From Gammaproteobacteria bacterium (GTDB lineage: Bacteria > Pseudomonadota > Gammaproteobacteria > GCA-001735895), in assembly GCA_050298595.1 (NCBI GenBank), contig JBNKUM010000009.1:32001-96000 (forward strand): a stretch of 64,000 nt of DNA, in the 5' to 3' direction. The position numbers and the translations under genes are program-made. Below, piece by piece: positions 12,484-47,897 of the stretch. Below the pieces are notes generated by a model. The model had not been told where the DNA came from, searched no databases, and was given only the letters and a program-made list of their open reading frames with translations. Position 1 is the stretch's first letter. Each line of letters opens with the position of its first letter.

Positions 12484-12648
12484 CAATAGTAGAAAGAGGG
12501 GCATTATATCTATTTTTTGCAAAAGGATATGCCGACAAAGACGATATCTCGTCTAAATATTAAACATATCCCAAATAAAGCTGAATATTGTAGATGTTGC
12601 ACTATAACTAATTAATAAACATCACAATAATGAGGGGGGGAGTATTGC

Positions 12649-31260: not shown

Positions 31261-32577
31261 TCAGTAATGATCCACATCTGTTAGAGGTAGCTTAACCTTA
31301 ACTTTCAATCCTCCTAATTCTGATTTCGAGAATGAAATATCACCTTTATAACTGTCCAGGATTGCGCTACATATACTCAGCCCAAGGCCGTGACCAGCCT
31401 GAGTTTCATCCAGTCTGACACCACGTTTTTGTATGCTTTCGATTTTCTGAGATTGAATTCCCTGACCATCGTCGTCAAAAATAATAATAAGTTGTTGTTC
31501 CAGCATGGACATAGTCAAACCAACCTGATGATTTGAGAATTTACAGGCATTATCCAGCAGGTTTCCAACCAGTTCTAGCATATCATCACGATCAAAGTCG
31601 ATGTTGCCTATTTCTTCTGGATGCTTGAAATTGATTTTTACATTGGGATAGATTTTATTCATGATTTCAATCATGAAGGGAATCTCTTCAGCAATATTGA
31701 ACACGCCGCTACTGTGTTTTGATCCCGAGATTTTCGCGCGTTTTAATTCGCGCTCAACGATATGTTGTATCTCATCCAGTGGTTCAATCATCTCTGGTAT
31801 TCTTTTCTGCTCCTGCTGTAATGATAATAACTGAATAGGGCGTTTTAATTCATGTGCAAGATTACCTATAGCGTGACGAGTACGCTCGATACGATTACGC
31901 AACTGATCAACTAGCATCTCAATTTCATTCACAAGTGGCATGATTTCCAAAGGTACCTGTAGACCGGTTTTATCCTGCTCGAGATGTCTAATCGATGAAA
32001 TGTTTCTTCTTAATAGTTCAAAAATATGGAAGGCTTTATTTAAGGTCTGTTGCTGTAACAAAACCAGGGTCAGAGAAAGTAATACCACTAGAGCAATGGC
32101 ATACAAACTATAACGGAATAATTGTTCCTGTAGTGGTTGAATATCTTCAGCTATCCAGATCTCCATAGCCTGTTTTTGTTTAACGACTACCTGATACCAT
32201 ATAAGCCAGGTTTCATTACCCGGTCCATCTACTTTTGAATAGCTACCTTTATCTTTCTGCTGTTCAATGAGTGGAAATTTTGTATCAAAAAGAGAACGTG
32301 ACGTTAGTATCTGACGGTTGATTCTGACTTTGTAATAATGCCCTGACCTTACCCGGTTATATACTCGGGACAAATGTGCAGGGTTTATTTCCCATGTATT
32401 ATGGTTGTTTCTCTGGATCACGCTAACCAGGCTCTCAGCGTCATGCTGTAATCGAGTTAACACATAGTCCTGTAATATACGTTCCACAGAAAAGCGCATG
32501 ATCACCAGCAAACCACACATCACTAGCAGCATATTTATGATGAGATTACGAGTTACTTTTTTTTTTAATGAATACAT
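31261..32577 (-). CDS. Sensor histidine kinase (BqsS/CarS/PhoQ-like)
   Basis: Two TMs, periplasmic SGHYY, H-box GNLAHELKRP, NLLDNACKF, DDDGQG, GHGLGL. Confidence 0.9.
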   Translation of the reverse strand: MYSLKKKVTRNLIINMLLVMCGLLVIMRFSVERILQDYVLTRLQHDAESLVSVIQRNNHNTWEINPAHLSRVYNRVRSGHYYKVRINRQILTSRSLFDTKFPLIEQQKDKGSYSKVDGPGNETWLIWYQVVVKQKQAMEIWIAEDIQPLQEQLFRYSLYAIALVVLLSLTLVLLQQQTLNKAFHIFELLRRNISSIRHLEQDKTGLQVPLEIMPLVNEIEMLVDQLRNRIERTRHAIGNLAHELKRPIQLLSLQQEQKRIPEMIEPLDEIQHIVERELKRAKISGSKHSSGVFNIAEEIPFMIEIMNKIYPNVKINFKHPEEIGNIDFDRDDMLELVGNLLDNACKFSNHQVGLTMSMLEQQLIIIFDDDGQGIQSQKIESIQKRGVRLDETQAGHGLGLSICSAILDSYKGDISFSKSELGGLKVKVKLPLTDVDHY

Positions 32578-32588
32578 AGACTGATTAT

Positions 32589-33251
32589 TTATTCATTAAT
32601 TATGCGATAACCTTGACCACGGAAAGTTTTAATCCAGTCTTTTCCTAAAATTGCTCTTAAGCGATTAACGTAGACCTCTATTACATTACTATCTTTGAGT
32701 TGCTCCTCCTGGTAGACGTGTTCACTCAGCTCCGTTTTTGAAATAATTTTATCAGGATGTAACATGAAGTATCGTAACAGGCGGAATTCTATCGCAGTGA
32801 GCTGTACGGTATCTTTGTCAGGAATCGATACCGTTTGCTGGTCAAGATTAAGTACTACGTTTAAGTGTTGTAGAGTATTATCCGACAGGCCAAACTGGCG
32901 ACGTAAAACCGCTTCAAGGCGAGCAGATAACTCTTCAAAATGAAAGGGTTTGCCAACATAATCATCAGCCCCAGCTTTCAATCCATCGACCCGTTCCTGC
33001 CAGGAGTCTCTTGCTGTTAGAATTAAAACTGGCGTAGTTAATTTCTTTGAGCGCCAGGATTTCAATACCTCAAGCCCCGGTTTCTGTGGCAGGCCAAGGT
33101 CGAGAATAATGCCATCAAAATTTTCTTCCAGAGCCAGAAATTCTGCATCGACCCCATTATCAGCCCATTCGACGACATAGCCTGCGCGCTGCAATCTGGG
33201 TCGTAAATTTTGAACCAGAGCTTCATCATCTTCGGCTAGAAGTATTTTCAA
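32589..33251 (-). CDS. OmpR/PhoP-family response regulator
   Basis: LDLGLP, LTARDSWQERVDGLKAGADDY, SNVIEVYVNRLR, TFRGQGY. Confidence 0.93.
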   Translation of the reverse strand: MKILLAEDDEALVQNLRPRLQRAGYVVEWADNGVDAEFLALEENFDGIILDLGLPQKPGLEVLKSWRSKKLTTPVLILTARDSWQERVDGLKAGADDYVGKPFHFEELSARLEAVLRRQFGLSDNTLQHLNVVLNLDQQTVSIPDKDTVQLTAIEFRLLRYFMLHPDKIISKTELSEHVYQEEQLKDSNVIEVYVNRLRAILGKDWIKTFRGQGYRIINE

Positions 33252-33547
33252 TCTTTAAACTCCTGTTTCAGTATCTGGCCATTACTGGCGTCGATTTTCA
33301 GCTCAATAACCCTTCCATCCTTATGTAAAAATTCGAGTTCATATTTAATGAGATGATGTTTTCTTTCTACTTCAAGGTCAAGTAGTTTTCCATATTGATT
33401 TTCCGGGTATTGAGTAAGAATAGTTTGCAACGAGAGTATCTTACCCTGCTCGACGAGATACATGATCTCGTCACGATCAATCTCATCCGCTTTGAGCGGG
33501 GTACTAATCCCAGCGACCAACGCCAGGAATAGATACGTTATCTTCAT
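33248..33547 (-). CDS. Exported PepSY-domain protein
   Basis: Signal peptide; G.ILSL..IL, YELEFL..DGRV.E.KIDASNG; stop overlaps regulator TTG. Confidence 0.82.
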   Translation of the reverse strand: MKITYLFLALVAGISTPLKADEIDRDEIMYLVEQGKILSLQTILTQYPENQYGKLLDLEVERKHHLIKYELEFLHKDGRVIELKIDASNGQILKQEFKD

Positions 33548-34106
33548 CAAAATTACCTCGTTCTGCCCCTCTATGACAGGCATTACATTGACTCAGTGAG
33601 CCTACTTTATCATTTCCCCTGATATATCTTGAGGGGATTTCGTCATGTTTGCGTATGAAAAAAGGCAGTTCAGTGATTCGCGTAGGGATTTTATTACCTG
33701 AATTTCTAAGTAATCTACGATAATTCATCGATGAGCTTACTTCGATTAGATATTGTTGTATGGCCACACGGGTGGTCTCATCCAGTTCAGCATTTTCACC
33801 AAAATGCTCATCTAGTCCTGACATGATGCTGACCCATGAGGGTACTGGCAATAACTGTGGAGGATAAGCCATGTGACAACTCCCGCATTCCTCAATATAT
33901 TGAGGGTAACTATTGCTAGTAATCCGGGTAAAATTCCTGTTTTCACGATAATTTCCCCTTTCCCGGTATTCGTGCTCACGCTCATGTTCATGTTCACCGT
34001 ATTCAAAATCACTATCTGCCATAGCTTTACCTACTCCATAGACACTGCTAAGCAGTACGCCACCTAATAACAGATAAGCAAATATATTAATTTTGCTTTG
34101 TTTCAT
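33504..34106 (-). CDS. Diheme cytochrome c (DHC)
   Basis: Signal peptide, ECGSCHMAYPPQLLP..SW...M..L..HFG, PTRITE, CNACH. Confidence 0.9.
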   Translation of the reverse strand: MKQSKINIFAYLLLGGVLLSSVYGVGKAMADSDFEYGEHEHEREHEYRERGNYRENRNFTRITSNSYPQYIEECGSCHMAYPPQLLPVPSWVSIMSGLDEHFGENAELDETTRVAIQQYLIEVSSSMNYRRLLRNSGNKIPTRITELPFFIRKHDEIPSRYIRGNDKVGSLSQCNACHRGAERGNFDEDNVSIPGVGRWD

Positions 34107-34124
34107 AATCTCTCCTCAGGTTGA

Positions 34125-34517
34125 CTATTGAGTGGCTAACCAGGATAAAATATCTGCTTTTTCCTGAACTGTGCAGGTGCGATTGAATGTCCACTTACAG
34201 TTACGTAAAAACCATTTCTCGATTTTTTTACTCTTCTGAAATCGAGCTGGATTTACGCTCATTGCCATAGGTTTAATCACCTTGCCAGTTTTTTGATGTT
34301 TACCGTTCATCGTCAGGTCTGTTCCATGGCAACTTGTACAGCTCCTGTCGCCTACTTTGGAATTAAATAACTGTCGACCCTTTTCGATATCGATCTGAGT
34401 TACACCTTGCTGCTTATATCCATCGATATGTGCCTGAGGATTTGCTCCAGCCTGAACATTGCTCGTTAGAATCACAAGGCTGCCTAATACAATAAGTTTA
34501 CGTAGTTGATGTTTCAT
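34125..34517 (-). CDS. SHP-like (sphaeroides heme protein/DUF1924) monoheme cytochrome c
   Basis: Signal peptide, SCTSCH, G.H.KTGK.I.PMA..VNP.RF, KIEKWF.RNC......C. Confidence 0.85.
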   Translation of the reverse strand: MKHQLRKLIVLGSLVILTSNVQAGANPQAHIDGYKQQGVTQIDIEKGRQLFNSKVGDRSCTSCHGTDLTMNGKHQKTGKVIKPMAMSVNPARFQKSKKIEKWFLRNCKWTFNRTCTVQEKADILSWLATQ

Positions 34518-34522
34518 ATGAT

Positions 34523-35134
34523 TTATTCTCCAGATTGTTGATCGTTTACATCCTGCCATTGGGCACGATATTTTTTTCTGCCGGTTACCATCGCCCTGGC
34601 CAGGTTTTCTCCTTCCATGAAGCTACTGAATACAACACCAGCCAGGTGGGTAATCACCAGAAGTAAAGTGAAATTAGCAAAAAACTCATGAACTTCACCC
34701 ATCCACTCGCCATTCCAGCCAGCTAAAAATGTATTAGCCAGAGGTCCGCTGCCTTCGCTAGCAATAGTGACCATTCCGGTGAAGGCGGTCATGCTAATGC
34801 TGAGTAATAATGCAATAATCATCACTGCTGCGACAGGGTTGTGTCCCAGATAATGGGGTGCATTAAAGCTCAGCATGCTCTTTAAATGAGAGATTACGGT
34901 GCTGGGTGATTTTACAAAGGTGAGAAACCTGGCGTAGCGTGTCCCCACCAGACCCCAGAACAGACGAAAGCCTACAAGCATCGAGACTGCATAGCCTGCC
35001 TGGACATGTACGCTTAACCAGTCATCTTCGGTTATAAATGCGAGTAAAAAGAAAAAAACAAGGCTCCAGTGGAACACTCGAACCAGTGGATCCCAGACCT
35101 TTACGCCGTGGGAAGTTTCGTTTTGAGCGGTCAT
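34523..35134 (-). CDS. Membrane cytochrome b (Ni-hydrogenase b-type family)
   Basis: VWDPLVRVFHWSL, H..AGY, GHNP, EVHE, HLAGV, MVTG.K. Confidence 0.9.
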   Translation of the reverse strand: MTAQNETSHGVKVWDPLVRVFHWSLVFFFLLAFITEDDWLSVHVQAGYAVSMLVGFRLFWGLVGTRYARFLTFVKSPSTVISHLKSMLSFNAPHYLGHNPVAAVMIIALLLSISMTAFTGMVTIASEGSGPLANTFLAGWNGEWMGEVHEFFANFTLLLVITHLAGVVFSSFMEGENLARAMVTGRKKYRAQWQDVNDQQSGE

Positions 35135-35162: not shown

Positions 35163-35194
35163 AGTTTAGGGCCATAGTATTAATTGAAACTTAA
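35163..35194 (-). promoter_or_regulatory. Response-regulator direct-repeat box plus -10 for the cytb-SHP-DHC operon
   Basis: Minus strand TTAAG-tttcaa-TTAAT (35194-35179), 10 nt, TAAACT (35168-35163). Confidence 0.6.
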
Positions 35195-35400
35195 AAAAAT
35201 TAAAGGGTGCAAAATCTGCGCATTATCTTTTGTTTTAATCATGATGCTACTCCTCATGGATTTGAGGAAGTCTACTTTAGGATTCGTTAAGTTATTGTTA
35301 GAAAAAAATATTATTTGTTGTTGACTGCTTTAAGTAATAAATTCACGAGTTTCTCACTATCAGATAGTTAAAGAGGGATTTAAGTTAATTCAGTTTAAAT

Positions 35401-35432
35401 TTAAGTTTGTATTAAGGTGAGCAGGATATATT
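35401..35432 (+). promoter_or_regulatory. TTAAG-N6-TTAAG box plus -10
   Basis: TTAAG-tttgta-TTAAG (35401-35416), 10 nt, TATATT (35427-35432). Confidence 0.65.
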
Positions 35433-35438
35433 GTGATG

Positions 35439-35530
35439 CCTCACTAATTGATTGATTTCTCGGGCATTGAAGTTATTCGCCCTAACTTCTCTCGATAAAT
35501 GGCAGATAAATCTGTTTAGCTTCCATTTTT
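35439..35530 (+). ncRNA. Candidate sRNA (or structured leader of the downstream gene)
   Basis: Follows box promoter; hairpin GAAGTTA/TAACTTC; imperfect ATGG...CCAT stem with T tract; shares its 3' motif with 46598-46702. Confidence 0.4.
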
Positions 35531-35645
35531 ATTATCAAAGATCATGTTACAATACGACGACCCCCTGATGGTTTTCCCTGGATAGTTATGATATGTATTC
35601 AGGGGATAAGGAATGTTTTTAGACTTAGATTATTAAGGTTAAAAT

Positions 35646-36851: not shown

Positions 36852-37055
36852 ATGTCGATGTCAACAATTACTTTTCAGATCAAGCAGAAGTCCGTTCTCG
36901 CCAGGCTGAACTCTTTTTCTCTGCAATTACAGTTAATGATGAGGAAACACGAACAGCGTAAGCAACTGGCTCAACTTAGTATTGATCAATTGATCGACAT
37001 GGGCATAGATCCTGCCGATGCTCAGACAGAAATAAGTAAACCTTTCTGGAAATAA
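36852..37055 (+). CDS. DUF1127 (YjiS-like) small protein
   Basis: RKQLAQLSIDQLIDMGI...E.SKPFWK signature; GGAGG RBS. Confidence 0.85.
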   Translation: MSMSTITFQIKQKSVLARLNSFSLQLQLMMRKHEQRKQLAQLSIDQLIDMGIDPADAQTEISKPFWK

Positions 37056-44312: not shown

Positions 44313-44374
44313 CCTGCTATCTGTAGGCTATACACAGTTAATGGTGAGCTTTGTCGACTGACAACAATAATCAC

Positions 44375-45436
44375 ATGCGAAAAATTATCCATATAGATAT
44401 GGATGCATTTTTCGCATCGGTTGAACAACGAGATAACCCAGATCTGAAAGGAAAACCCGTGGCGGTTGGAGGTTCGGCCAAACGTGGTGTGGTTGCCGCC
44501 GCGAGCTACGAAGCACGAGAGTTTGGCGTTTATTCTGCTATGCCATCGGTCACGGCTTTAAGGAAATGCCCGCAACTGATATTTGTCCCCCCCAGATTTG
44601 ATGTGTATAAATCAGTATCACAACAGATTCATCAGGTTTTTAAAAAACATACTGATCTCATAGAGCCCTTATCTCTGGATGAAGCCTATCTGGATGTAAC
44701 GCAGAATAAACAGGGTATTGCATCCGCTACTGAGATTGCTCGGCTGATCAAGAATGAAATCAAACAGCAGACTAGATTAACCGCCTCGGCTGGTGTCTCG
44801 ATGAATAAATTCCTGGCTAAGGTAGCTTCCGATGTTGATAAGCCTGATGGACTGTTTGTGATTCGACCACAACAAGCACAGGATTTCATCGATCAGTTAC
44901 CAATAGAACGTTTTTTTGGAGTAGGGAGAGTGACCGCTAAAAAGATGAAAGCGCTGGGTATTTTCAATGGAGAAACTTTAAAGCAATGGTCACGGGAAGA
45001 TCTGTTACAGCAATTTGGAAAATCAGGATTATATTTTTATCAGGTCGCGCATGGTCAGGATGAGCGCCCCGTGCAGTCACATCGTATTCGTAAGTCTCTG
45101 GGTGCAGAGCGTACCTTTGCTGATGATTTGACATCTCTAACAGACATGGATACTCAGTTGCAACTGATCTCTGAAGAAGTCGCGATCAGGTTATCTCGAG
45201 CTGCAAAGCAGGGGCGAACTATTACTTTAAAAGTAAAATTTGCAGACTTTAGTCAAATTACTCGTAGTCAATCATTGAATGATTTAGTTACCGATGCCGA
45301 GTCTATATTCCAGGTTGCCAGCCATTTGCTACACACTGAATTTGTAGAAGGGTTTCGGATAAGACTGTTGGGGATTACGCTTTCGAACTTATCTACATCA
45401 AACGATAAGACACATCAGTTAAGTCTTGGAATATAA
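44375..45436 (+). CDS. dinB: DNA polymerase IV
   Basis: RKIIHIDMDAFFASVEQRD, SYEAR, SLDEAYLD, KFLAKVASD.DKPDG. Confidence 0.96.
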   Translation: MRKIIHIDMDAFFASVEQRDNPDLKGKPVAVGGSAKRGVVAAASYEAREFGVYSAMPSVTALRKCPQLIFVPPRFDVYKSVSQQIHQVFKKHTDLIEPLSLDEAYLDVTQNKQGIASATEIARLIKNEIKQQTRLTASAGVSMNKFLAKVASDVDKPDGLFVIRPQQAQDFIDQLPIERFFGVGRVTAKKMKALGIFNGETLKQWSREDLLQQFGKSGLYFYQVAHGQDERPVQSHRIRKSLGAERTFADDLTSLTDMDTQLQLISEEVAIRLSRAAKQGRTITLKVKFADFSQITRSQSLNDLVTDAESIFQVASHLLHTEFVEGFRIRLLGITLSNLSTSNDKTHQLSLGI

Positions 45437-45519
45437 TTCGAAAAACCTGTTAAAAGTAGCTGCTATCTTAAAAACGCGCTCTAGGGGCAATCATTGGGAA
45501 TGAAGGGATGAAGTTTTTC

Positions 45520-46458
45520 CCCACTCCTGGCAATAGGCTATGTCGCATTGATTGCTGCATGATTACCGCACTCGCCTATCTGTATTTTAATTCAACCCAG
45601 CTGGCTCAACATGGGTTTACCTCGCCATTTCAACTCACATAGGTAGCCGGGATTTATTTCTCCAATATGCTGGCGATCCTATTTAGTTTTGGACTACTGA
45701 TCCTCTGGGCTCAGGTTAGAATGGCTCGTCACTGTGCAGAATGCCTGACAATGCAGGTAGAAAGCTCATTGGATGATTTTGTCACTGCCTCTTTGATCGC
45801 AAAATTATTATCTGAGGCTACCTCACAATATCTGGGTCAGGGTAGTCTTGAGATCATGGATAAATCTGTATTTGAGCCTGGTGAGCCTGATCCACAGCGC
45901 AAGCATGATTTACAGGTATTGTTTGATCAGTATGCAGAACCCTGTCGGCAATACTCGGTAATTGTATTATTTCGAAAATTTGATGATATAGGGCCAAAGC
46001 CGTGGCCTTGCCCGATGGACATATTATTTTCACCGATGCGATGGTAAATCTGGCAAACCAGAATGAGGAGTTGATTGCTATTTTCGGGCATGAAGTCGGA
46101 CACCTGGCACATCAACATATGTTAAGACGAGTGATTCAGGATTCGATGTTCACTCTGGTTCTGGTACTGGTTACGGGTGATGCATCCTCAGCGCTTGTTA
46201 GCGCGATTCCAGCGGTGCTACTTGAGCTTGCCTATTCGTGAGAATTTGAACGGGAAGCCGATGATTTTGCCTATGAATTCCTGTTACAAAACAATCTATC
46301 CACCGTGTATTTTGCTAATATTATGCAGCGCCTGGAATAACTGCGAAGATATCCCAAATCAAAAGATGATATTGAAAGGCACAGCAATCAAGAAGAAGGG
46401 TATTCCTCCTATCTTTCAACCCATCCGGCAACTGAACAACGGATGCAGGGGGTTTTAG
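45520..46458 (+). pseudogene. Decayed fusion of YjgN/DUF898 membrane protein C-terminus and M48 metallopeptidase
   Basis: YFNSTQL...*VAGIYFSNMLAILFSFGLLILWAQVRMAR (TAG at 45640); M48 part with frameshift near 46000, HEVGH zinc motif, YS*EFEREADD (TGA 46239) and a further stop; 5' boundary approximate. Confidence 0.75.
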
Positions 46459-46561
46459 GCCTGAGCAATAGTTAGTTAAGACATCTTGTAGACTCCCTGA
46501 GGGGGATTTTTGATATGTGAAATCCTGAGTTTATGAATCAAATTCAAGTCAGAGGGGGGTT

Positions 46562-46593
46562 TTAAGCTTCAATTAAGGTTAAAACCCTATAGT
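46562..46593 (+). promoter_or_regulatory. TTAAG-N6-TTAAG box plus -10
   Basis: TTAAG-cttcaa-TTAAG (46562-46577), 10 nt, TATAGT (46588-46593). Confidence 0.7.
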
Positions 46594-46597
46594 AGGG

Positions 46598-46702
46598 AAT
46601 CCTTCCGGTGTTTAGAAGGATTTGAGATTAATAATACTTACTTCTCAACTCAGATGGCGGCTATATTCACCCCCCCCCCGACTGTAGCCGCCATTTTTTT
46701 TT
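46598..46702 (+). ncRNA. Candidate ~100-nt three-hairpin sRNA
   Basis: Between box promoter and intrinsic terminator; stems AATCCTTC/GAAGGATT, TTGAGA/TCTCAA and a terminator with C10 loop; no ORF with an RBS. Confidence 0.55.
46654..46702 (+). terminator. Rho-independent terminator
   Basis: ATGGCGGCTATA...TGTAGCCGCCAT (12 bp, one G-U) followed by a T run. Confidence 0.8.
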
Positions 46703-46721
46703 CATAGATAGAATTATCAAA

Positions 46722-47210
46722 TCATCTGGTAAGTATTCTATATGTTAAGTACATTACATCAAACGGCAGATGTTGAAATGATCTTGTCTCGCCTTCAATA
46801 AACCCCAGCTTTATGTACCAGTCTTTAAGTTCTGAAAATTTTGCAATGATTCCGATACTGACAAGATAGATTTCCTGATTCTTTGAGTATTCAATCACGT
46901 GGCGTACCAGTTTTTCGCCGATACCTCTACACCTATATTTGGGTAATACCGATAAGCGGTTCAGATAGGATATGGAAGGATCAGGGCTTTCAAAAGCAAC
47001 ACAGCCTATAAAAATACCATCTAGCTGGGCAAGAAAATATTTTTCACCACGATCAAAATCTGATCTTGCCCAGTCCTCAGTGTAAAAGGAGGGGTGTTTT
47101 GGGTTATTTTGCCGAGTTAAATCAAATCGTTCTGCTACGTCTTTATTCGACTCACTTATGATATTTGCTAAAACGGCAGAATCTTTTTTGGTTGCGTTAA
47201 TTATTTTCAT
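46722..47210 (-). CDS. GNAT-family N-acetyltransferase
   Basis: YLNRLSVLPKYRCRGIGEKLV (acetyl-CoA motif A), WYIKLGF. Confidence 0.88.
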   Translation of the reverse strand: MKIINATKKDSAVLANIISESNKDVAERFDLTRQNNPKHPSFYTEDWARSDFDRGEKYFLAQLDGIFIGCVAFESPDPSISYLNRLSVLPKYRCRGIGEKLVRHVIEYSKNQEIYLVSIGIIAKFSELKDWYIKLGFIEGETRSFQHLPFDVMYLTYRILTR

Positions 47211-47573
47211 GACCCCGTATTTAAAAACTGTCATTTGAGAATGTCTACATCAAAGGTGCTAAGAAATCCTGTTTAACCTATATTTCTACTCTTCTATTGC
47301 TACTTTCTTGCTGACTGCTTTATGGTTTCGCCATCTGGGGCTTTTAGGGCGATGTGTACTCTGTGTTACCACTTCTTGCCGGTAGACTTATGCCTGTAAG
47401 GTTGCGCCTTTATTGTGCATCAGCCAGCACCGGTGATACAAGATTATTGCTTTCTGCCAATATGGCACCAAAACTATTATCAATTCCAATAAGTTAATAA
47501 CTAGTTCTACTTGTATTAGTTCGTCAATAGCTGCAAAAATATCAGCCTAATTTCCAAGCTGGAGTCGTATAAA

Positions 47574-47897
47574 ATGACAAAACTGTGCCAATCCCTTTTC
47601 CTTTTTTCTGCTCTTTTTGTATCTGCCTGTAGTTGGGTTGATCTGTCAAAGGAGGGAGAGAAGATTCGTGTACTGGAAACTTCTGAGGTATCCACATGTA
47701 AACATCTGGGCCAGACCACAGCAAACACTCAGGAAAAAGCGTTAGGGGTTAGACGGCATGATAAAGCGATTAATCAGGAACTCACTGCCCTGGCACGTAA
47801 TGCTGCGGCTAAGATGGGTGGAGATACTATCGTTGCCGATGGTCCAGAGGTCGGGGCCAAGCAGACTTTTCTCATCTATAAGTGCGTCGGTCAATAA
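47574..47897 (+). CDS. Lipoprotein, DUF4156-like
   Basis: Lipobox VSAC, C..LG, ARN.AAKMGGDTIV, YKC; GGAG RBS. Confidence 0.75.
   Translation: MTKLCQSLFLFSALFVSACSWVDLSKEGEKIRVLETSEVSTCKHLGQTTANTQEKALGVRRHDKAINQELTALARNAAAKMGGDTIVADGPEVGAKQTFLIYKCVGQ

Follow-up and report, generated by a model that had tools for sequence, protein, structure and literature searches.

A predicted small RNA family with C-rich loops and a PmrA-type promoter in an uncultured group of Gammaproteobacteria

Introduction

Contig JBNKUM010000009.1 of assembly GCA_050298595.1, from an uncultured gammaproteobacterium, carries a short unit with a promoter-like repeat, three hairpins and a run of Ts, set between a peptidase pseudogene and a convergent acetyltransferase gene. 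The locus raises the question of whether this unit is a gene for a regulatory RNA with a promoter of its own or a part of a neighbouring transcript, and, if it is an RNA gene, what turns it on and what it acts on. A first-pass annotation, made from the letters of a 64,000-nucleotide stretch of the contig (positions 32,001 to 96,000; here the window, whose numbering is used throughout), had described the unit as a trans-acting regulatory RNA with a C-rich terminator loop. We conclude that the unit, here called s1, is very probably a real and previously undescribed small regulatory RNA (sRNA) gene of this uncultured group, as judged from sequence comparison. The more specific reading, in which s1 is a regulator-activated, trans-acting sRNA, about 104 nt long, with C-rich loops as its pairing sites, is the one we favour, with somewhat better than even confidence.

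Results

Sequence elements and fold of s1

The s1 locus is composed of the following elements.

46561..46577, + strand: response-regulator box TTTAAG-N5-ATTAAG, a direct repeat with an 11-bp period at the place of the -35 element
46588..46593, + strand: -10 hexamer TATAGT, exactly 10 nt past the second hexamer of the box
46599..46702, + strand: predicted sRNA s1, about 104 nt (promoter geometry, fold and covariance model matches)
46598..46622, + strand: hairpin 1, 8 bp with a 9-nt loop (sequence, RNAfold)
46622..46648, + strand: hairpin 2, 6 bp with a 15-nt AU-rich loop (sequence, RNAfold)
46654..46694, + strand: hairpin 3, the intrinsic terminator, with a large apical loop (sequence, RNAfold)
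46670..46679, + strand: run of ten Cs (C10) in the terminator loop, the proposed seed, unpaired in the minimum free energy structure
46694..46702, + strand: T9 terminator tail (sequence)

The full box reads TTTAAG-CTTCA-ATTAAG, with its hexamers at 46561-46566 and 46572-46577, and the shorter repeat TTAAG-N6-TTAAG that the first-pass annotation had picked out (46562-46566 and 46573-46577) is read directly within it. The TATAGT hexamer, the three hairpins, the ten loop Cs and the T run were likewise all found where that annotation had placed them, and RNAfold agrees. The transcript would start at 46598-46600, 5-7 nt past the -10 hexamer, and would end in the T run. Hairpin 1 pairs AATCCTTC (46598-46605) with GAAGGATT (46615-46622), hairpin 2 pairs TTGAGA (46622-46627) with TCTCAA (46643-46648), and the terminator stem is formed by ATGGCGGCTA (46654-46663) and TAGCCGCCAT (46685-46694). 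RNAfold of 46598-46705 gave exactly these three hairpins at -33.6 kcal/mol, compared to -16.5 +/- 3.1 kcal/mol for shuffled sequences (n=200), none of which folded as well (0 of 200; z -5.54). A generic promoter/terminator scan listed neither the s1 promoter nor the s1 terminator; the promoter was missed because it has no TTGACA-like -35, and the terminator because its loop is larger than the 8-nt limit of the scan.

s1 is present in a single copy in the 5.49-Mb genome, and is thus not a repeat element. In a scan of 46300-46900 against Rfam 15 no family reached its gathering threshold: the top match was SQ2397 (22.7 bits where 100 are required, E 0.1), with weaker matches to PyrR (19.4 bits against 54) and RsaOG (18.3 bits against 50), and the RsaE model gave no match at E up to 10. 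The absence of a credible open reading frame (ORF), claimed by the first-pass annotation, was confirmed. The sole ATG frame in s1 runs from 46654 for 17 codons, lies within the terminator hairpin, has no Shine-Dalgarno (SD) sequence, and is not kept across species, where it varies in frame and length because the length of the C run differs.

Conservation of s1 among changing neighbours

Fourteen genomes of the genus were compared, that of the window being G000. A DNA search of 40 relatives gave two clear homologues of s1, in which similarity spans the unit from box to T run and the flanks diverge. With a covariance model built from these two and the window sequence (R1), s1 was recovered from G000, G012, G010, G001 and G004, five genomes of the genus, at 62.7-161.4 bits, and in all five s1 lies between the dinB and DUF4156/glnD genes. 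In the alignment of the five species the box is unchanged throughout, the -10 hexamer is TATAGT in four and TATACT in the remaining one, and the T tail comprises at least 7 Ts in every case.

The genes that flank s1 in the window, both outside the unit and both of the kind that the first-pass annotation had named, are as follows.

45562..46457, + strand: DUF898/M48-peptidase pseudogene remnant (tblastn against an intact relative, Pfam)
46722..47234, - strand: GNAT acetyltransferase gene, convergent (Pfam)

The pseudogene consists of a C-terminal remnant of DUF898 and an M48 peptidase without residues 1-125; compared to the intact 356-aa protein of the relative, the reading frame of the M48 part shifts near 46000 and is interrupted by a stop codon at 46239-46241. 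On the 5′ side of s1, M48 is thus a pseudogene here, intact (356-357 aa) in G004 and G001, and absent in G012 and G010. On the 3′ side, the window has the GNAT gene (-) and G004 a TauE-like gene (-), and in G012 and G010 DUF4156 (+) comes directly next; the GNAT gene is specific to this genome at this site, and G012, G010 and G004 lack it at the homologous position. Since G012 and G010 carry s1 without M48, s1 is not merely the terminator of the pseudogene, which was the scenario that the first-pass annotation had set against its own proposal. That s1 is kept while its neighbours vary also argues against a cis-acting leader. Together these comparisons support the view that the unit behaves as an independent, conserved, non-coding gene.

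The interval from dinB to DUF4156 (44351-47897 of the window; loci L010, L011, L020 and L021) is a gene-turnover hotspot throughout which the sRNA persists. Just 5′ of the s1 promoter, at 46493-46506, a small terminator-like hairpin CTCCCTGAGGGGG with a T run is found that is common only to G012, and a G6 run (46554-46559) stands just 5′ of the box. This G6 run was considered as a partner of the C run and dropped, since the position is G-rich only here and in G012. The s1 hairpin was also considered as the terminator of the GNAT gene and rejected: read on the minus strand it has no U tract after it, and the GNAT gene is absent in relatives.

A family of paralogous sRNAs with compensatory changes

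A second predicted sRNA of the same kind lies in the window.

35400..35537, + strand: paralogous sRNA s2, with the same box and spacing, a -10 hexamer TATATT and a terminator (R1 33.6 bits, R2 90.8 bits)

With R1, orthologues of s2 were found in the same five genomes as s1, at a distance of 10-13.5 kb from it, and a third type, s3, was uncovered in G013 and G011 by a search for the promoter pattern described below. The 12 sequences of the family align end to end, with shared box, spacing and -10 hexamer and a variable hairpin 1. Hairpin 2 is GAAGUUA/UAACUUC in s2, s3 and the s1 of G004, and hairpin 2 of the window s1 is homologous to this hairpin, which has a C-rich loop in the paralogues. The terminator stems, GCGGC/GCCGC in s1, GCAGC/GCUGC in s2 and GAUGGUUG/CAACCAUC in s3, differ by compensatory changes. 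A second model, R2, made for the whole family, gave 12 members in 7 of the 14 genomes of the genus; among 65 genomes of three sister genera neither R2 nor R1 gave any match. In the genome collection used, the order comprises the same 79 genomes as the taxonomic family.

Covariation was evident at both levels of the comparison. Among the five s1 sequences, both-sided changes were seen in 7 of 28 pairs and 90.6% of cells were paired, compared to at most 52.9% with slid partners. In the 12-member alignment, compensatory, both-sided changes were seen in 16 of 28 pairs, with 88.0% of cells paired compared to at most 53.5% with slid partners. None of 500 shuffles of this alignment reached the observed value on four of five measures, and 2 of 500 did so on the fifth, the count of further pair types. 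Hairpin 1 had both-sided changes in 6 of its 7 pairs, and the terminator had compensatory changes in 8 of 15 pairs, with 97% of its cells paired.

C-rich loops are present in all 12 members. In s1 the run lies in the terminator loop and consists of 10, 6, 7, 7 and 6 Cs in the five species, all of which have the core CCCCCGA in common. In s2 the C-rich loop is UUCGCCC in hairpin 2, invariant in five members, and in s3 there are C-rich loops of CCCC or CCCCCC in hairpin 1 plus UUCACCC in hairpin 2. A C-rich loop that is displayed in the predicted fold is thus the common theme of the family, and its position differs between the paralogues.

The s2 copy of the window has two mismatches in its terminator stem (GCAGAU/GCUUCC, compared to GCAGCU/GCUGCC in four orthologues) and folds at -16.1 kcal/mol, compared to about -30 kcal/mol for the other s2 sequences; it may therefore be decaying. 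At a distance of 1.3 kb from s2 there is a gene for a DUF1127 protein of 67 aa (36852-37055; 24.8 bits, cut-off 23.3). In Alphaproteobacteria, DUF1127 genes have been linked to the C-rich 'CcsR/cuckoo' sRNAs; no link from DUF1127 to a C-rich sRNA was found here.

Outside the genome collection, R1 was run on 80 of at least 117 metagenome stretches with the promoter pattern, and gave 19 matches at E up to 1, all but one of them at chance level. The exception is on a metagenome contig (L096, 8717-8834; R1 32.9 bits), where a C/U-rich stretch and a terminator come after the box and -10 hexamer. Its interior is unrelated and it was not used as a member of the family; it may represent a further regulator-driven sRNA, from some other organism.

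A promoter shared with a haem-protein/two-component operon

The promoter of s1 belongs to a fixed pattern, TTTAAG-N5-WTTAAK-N10-TAnnnT. The bare box TTAAG-N6-TTAA[GT] is not rare, with 26 matches in the 5.49-Mb genome. The composite of box and -10 hexamer at fixed spacing is rare, with 4 matches in this genome, three of them in the window and one on contig C8. Behind these four sites (TTTAAG-N5-ATTAAK-N10-TAnnnT) lie s1, s2, an operon that runs on the minus strand from 35134, and a gene for cytochrome c peroxidase. Within the genus, the pattern has 25 matches in 11 of 14 genomes, all with the same spacing, compared to 0 for a reversed control, and the other matches precede genes for cytochrome b561, Sphaeroides haem protein (SHP)-like proteins and related genes. 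The operon and its promoter in the window are made up as follows.

35163..35195, - strand: third promoter copy, TTTAAG-N5-ATTAAT-N10-TAAACT, heading the haem-protein/two-component operon
31261..35134, - strand: six-gene operon (ORFs, Pfam)
34523-35134, - strand: cytochrome b561 (PF01292)
34125-34559, - strand: SHP/DUF1924 (PF09086)
33504-34106, - strand: dihaem cytochrome c, DHC (PF09626)
33248-33583, - strand: PepSY protein (PF03413 at 22.6 bits, slightly below the cut-off of 24)
32589-33251, - strand: OmpR/PmrA-like response regulator (PF00072 and PF00486)
31261-32577, - strand: histidine kinase (PF02518)

s1 and this operon are about 11 kb apart. s2 is divergent from the operon promoter at a distance of about 200 bp in at least four genomes, that is, in the window and three related loci. 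A weight-matrix scan also gave sites of a TTTCAG variant, for example before a DHC-cytochrome c′-cytochrome b561 cluster. This cluster belongs to a second haem locus of the genome (G000:C8:22840-26832), in which the TTTAAG box stands before the cytochrome c peroxidase gene and the TTTCAG-variant box before the divergent DHC-cytochrome c′-cytochrome b561 genes. More TTTCAG-variant boxes are located at C49:11163, C100:145989 and C85:12853, and at C88:12397 and C1:56932, the last two being an identical sequence at two places on contigs.

The candidate regulator and its site

The response regulator of the operon (32589-33251) has its best Protein Data Bank matches in BasR/PmrA (E about 8e-42), and its best NCBIfam model is PmrA (NF007928, 198.6 bits). 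In the parts of PMC10570014 drawn on here, the PmrA box is defined as two XTTAAY hexamers 5 nt apart that overlap the -35, and residues T187, N188, V192 and H195 of PmrA are described as contacting the TAA bases. The layout TTTAAG-CTTCA-ATTAAG was found to agree with that definition, and the regulator has S, N, V and N at the four contact positions. The box stands at the -35 place, 10 nt before TATAGT, its position relative to the start depending on where the start is put. As in the PmrA/BasR promoters described there (PMC10570014; PDB 4S04/4S05, 8JO2), paired hexamers replace the -35 in s1 with the -10 at a fixed distance; s1 differs in its first hexamer, TTTAAG, and the operon here specifies cytochromes and a PepSY protein in place of enzymes for lipid A modification.

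Among public regulator loci, by which the genus consists of metagenome-assembled genomes (MAGs) of uncultured Gammaproteobacteria, of the 20 loci whose regulator identity is 71% or more, 19 have the box before the regulator's operon, as do 7 of the 60 others. The repeat that the first-pass annotation had noted as a TTAAG box is thus present as described and is more than that: by its layout and distribution it is a putative PmrA-type response-regulator site, shared with s2 and the two-component operon.

In two loci from Thiotrichaceae MAGs (L218 and L221), divergent promoter pairs with TTTAAG/TTTCAG-type boxes stand beside regulators that are 58-59% identical, and the box type therefore reaches beyond the genus. 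One related regulator locus is on a scaffold of a symbiont of the gutless worm Olavius.

RNA chaperones

A long U tail after an intrinsic terminator is a criterion for an Hfq-dependent sRNA. s1 has a T9 tail, and hfq is present in the genome (Hfq 100.4 bits at G000:C68), so that s1 agrees in sequence with what is expected of such sRNAs. ProQ was not found with PF04352 in this 98.6%-complete genome.

Discussion

Proposed mode of action

We propose that s1 would be transcribed from a sigma-70 promoter that has no -35 and carries a PmrA-type repeat in its place. The repeat would most likely be bound by the phosphorylated OmpR/PmrA-like regulator encoded at 32589-33251, which would also control its own operon, s2 and the cytochrome c peroxidase gene. 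The shared site before the regulator operon, s2 and the peroxidase gene means that s1 would respond to the same sensor, and the sRNA would then be made when a periplasmic sensor system related to redox state, O2 or nitric oxide (NO) fires. The apical loop of the terminator would display an unpaired run of six to ten Cs, which, through its core CCCCCGA, may pair in trans with G-rich SD or leader sequences and so block translation. Hfq would probably bind the U tail; a role for it is likely because hfq is present and the tail is long.

Several observations weigh against this proposal. By a generic sigma-70 scan the s1 promoter is not above background. The regulator scores below the PmrA equivalog cut-off (198.6 against 330 bits), so that PmrA is its nearest model and not a family of which it is a member, and its counterpart of H195, one of the contact residues, is N. 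A regulator paralogue with 46% identity is encoded on contig C41 of the same genome, TTTCAG-variant boxes exist, and the link between regulator and box rests on co-occurrence and family resemblance. As to the structure, support is poorest for hairpin 2, the weakest helix, of whose cells 66.7% are paired in the model register and whose register shifts between species; the fitting of the covariation alignments to the model structure works in favour of that structure, and all sequences come from one genus. The length of the C10 run is as read from an assembly.

The search for targets adds to these reservations. cheA, suggested by the first-pass annotation for its G-rich ribosome-binding site, is rejected as a conserved target: the G7 SD at 12634-12640 is found in this genome only, the orthologues in four other species carry ordinary SDs (AGGGG in G008, CAGGAG in G009, GTGGAG in G005 and CAGGAG in G002), and the s1-bearing G010, G001 and G004 gave no DNA match to this cheA. 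coxB is uninformative, since its CGGGGG SD is found in the s1 species G000, G001, G010 and G004 and equally in G002, G006 and G007, three species in which no sRNA was found. The only candidate with a comparative hint, and a weak one, is a DsrE-like gene (Pfam), which has a run of 6-7 Gs in G000, G012 and G004, an interrupted run in G010, and none in G013, G009 and G006; the run co-occurs with s1 only within one clade, and the hint is confounded by shared ancestry. Genome-wide, at least six Gs at -25 to -3 were counted in 14 of 4906 crude ORFs, and looser rules gave 84 runs of at least six Gs 2-17 nt before a possible start. The top duplex scores of the loop against the 4906 crude start regions include many implausible starts, and the ranking, dominated by G-rich stretches at doubtful starts, does not discriminate. 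Of the original proposal of a trans-acting RNA, what stands is an independent conserved gene with covariation and a C6-C10 loop that is kept; the cheA target does not.

Alternative explanations

The evidence was also weighed under other explanations of the locus. One accepts s1 as real and regulator-driven and makes its C-rich loops a protein-binding site or a sponge for another RNA, or gives the pairing to another seed such as the AU-rich loop of hairpin 2. We consider this unlikely, if still worth keeping in sight: no conserved target with a matching G-run was found, and the shifting position of the C-rich loop among the paralogues is as compatible with recognition of a displayed motif as with base pairing, whereas pairing of C-rich unpaired motifs with SD or G-rich leader sequences is an established mechanism in the parts of the literature used here (PMC8295292, PMC4409812), and no analysis that we made indicates a C-loop-binding protein. 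It is also rather unlikely that the link to the two-component system of the SHP operon is only apparent, with the box bound by the paralogue from contig C41 or another OmpR-family protein, or with s1 expressed constitutively. The existence of that paralogue and of TTTCAG-variant boxes before other genes would allow for it; the strong association of the box with the regulator's own operon in closely related loci and the divergent placement of s2 beside the operon promoter speak against it, and so does the s1 promoter itself, which, having no -35 of its own, should need an activator.

A cis-acting element, either the terminator or 3′ untranslated region of an upstream gene (dinB or M48) or the leader or attenuator of DUF4156, is in our judgement very unlikely. 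In G004 the box does begin only 70 nt past the M48 stop, in G012 and G010 DUF4156 follows on the same strand, and the hairpin would be a strong terminator for any + strand transcript. However, the gene upstream may be dinB, an intact M48 or a pseudogene while promoter, hairpins and loop stay, the gene downstream varies too and is on the opposite strand in three genomes, and s2 and s3 occur in unrelated contexts. In addition, a bare terminator does not explain the covariation of hairpin 1, and no alternative antiterminator pairing was seen in the folds. That the unit encodes a very small peptide is hardly conceivable, as the 17-codon ATG frame from 46654 that could be cited for it lies inside the terminator stem without an SD and shifts in frame and length with the C run in other species. 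We thus retain the reading of s1 as a regulator-activated, C-loop-pairing sRNA.

An extension of that reading, which we regard as distinctly improbable, would make the C-rich loop a 'wandering' homopolymeric seed of variable length, whose place would vary among the paralogues between hairpin 1, hairpin 2 and the terminator loop. The slippage-prone C6-C10 tract of s1 might then, by its length, heritably and reversibly retune which G-rich ribosome-binding sites the regulon of the redox sensor silences.

Comparison with known systems

Two described sRNAs resemble the proposed mode of action. RoxS/RsaE of Bacillus subtilis and Staphylococcus aureus is, in the parts of PMC4409812 drawn on here, a short sRNA in which several unpaired motifs are C-rich; it is transcribed under the control of the redox/NO-responsive two-component systems ResDE/SrrAB, it blocks translation initiation at the ribosome-binding sites of respiration and redox genes, and C-rich region 3 of RoxS acts on ppnKB. 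s1 appears similar in its C-rich unpaired loops and, by promoter only, in its connection to a two-component haem/redox regulon. It differs in having no sequence or structure homology to RoxS/RsaE, in belonging to another phylum, in a regulator that is PmrA-like and not ResD-like, and in the location of its main C run in the terminator loop. The second is RepG of Helicobacter pylori, which uses a C/U-rich terminator loop to pair with a homopolymeric G-repeat in the leader of an mRNA; there, as far as the passages of PMC8295292 used here describe it, a homopolymer of variable length sets the outcome, with the variation on the side of the target and a highly conserved sRNA. The terminator loop of s1 is also C-rich with an unpaired C run, but s1 has no homology to RepG, its variable run (C6-C10) is in the sRNA itself, and the parallel in chemotaxis through cheA failed the test of conservation. 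The wandering-seed idea would be the mirror image of RepG, in which the variable repeat lies in the target. By this analogy s1 would work like RoxS/RsaE and RepG while being a member of neither, and s1-s3 would in this sense be a new sRNA family of a known kind. Our literature search for sRNAs with a C-rich terminator loop combined with a two-component system and SD sequences returned a general review only.

The operon itself is of a known type. Meyer et al. (PMC2909971) described a six-gene SHP operon with Orf1, a response regulator and the sensor kinase SK1, and the cluster in the window, with cytochrome b, SHP, DHC, periplasmic accessory protein, regulator and kinase, matches the type as the consulted portion of that paper sets it out. 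The same portion describes no promoter motif and no sRNA, and presents function and inducing signal as open since the description of the operon. A literature search found nothing that joins sphaeroides heme protein with small RNA. The sRNAs, the peroxidase gene and the shared box would extend the SHP regulon: the operon would gain a promoter motif and a small regulon, in which cytochrome c peroxidase and two or three sRNAs would join the genes for cytochrome b561, SHP and dihaem cytochrome. We believe that this promoter motif and regulon are the most useful by-product of the analysis, as the output of the sensor would become directly testable. If the reading of s1 is true, it would also add sRNAs to an uncultured gammaproteobacterial group for which none has been described. 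The circuit would then be a gammaproteobacterial counterpart of the RoxS/RsaE logic, and would bear on the independent origin of circuits that couple a redox-sensing two-component system to a C-rich sRNA.

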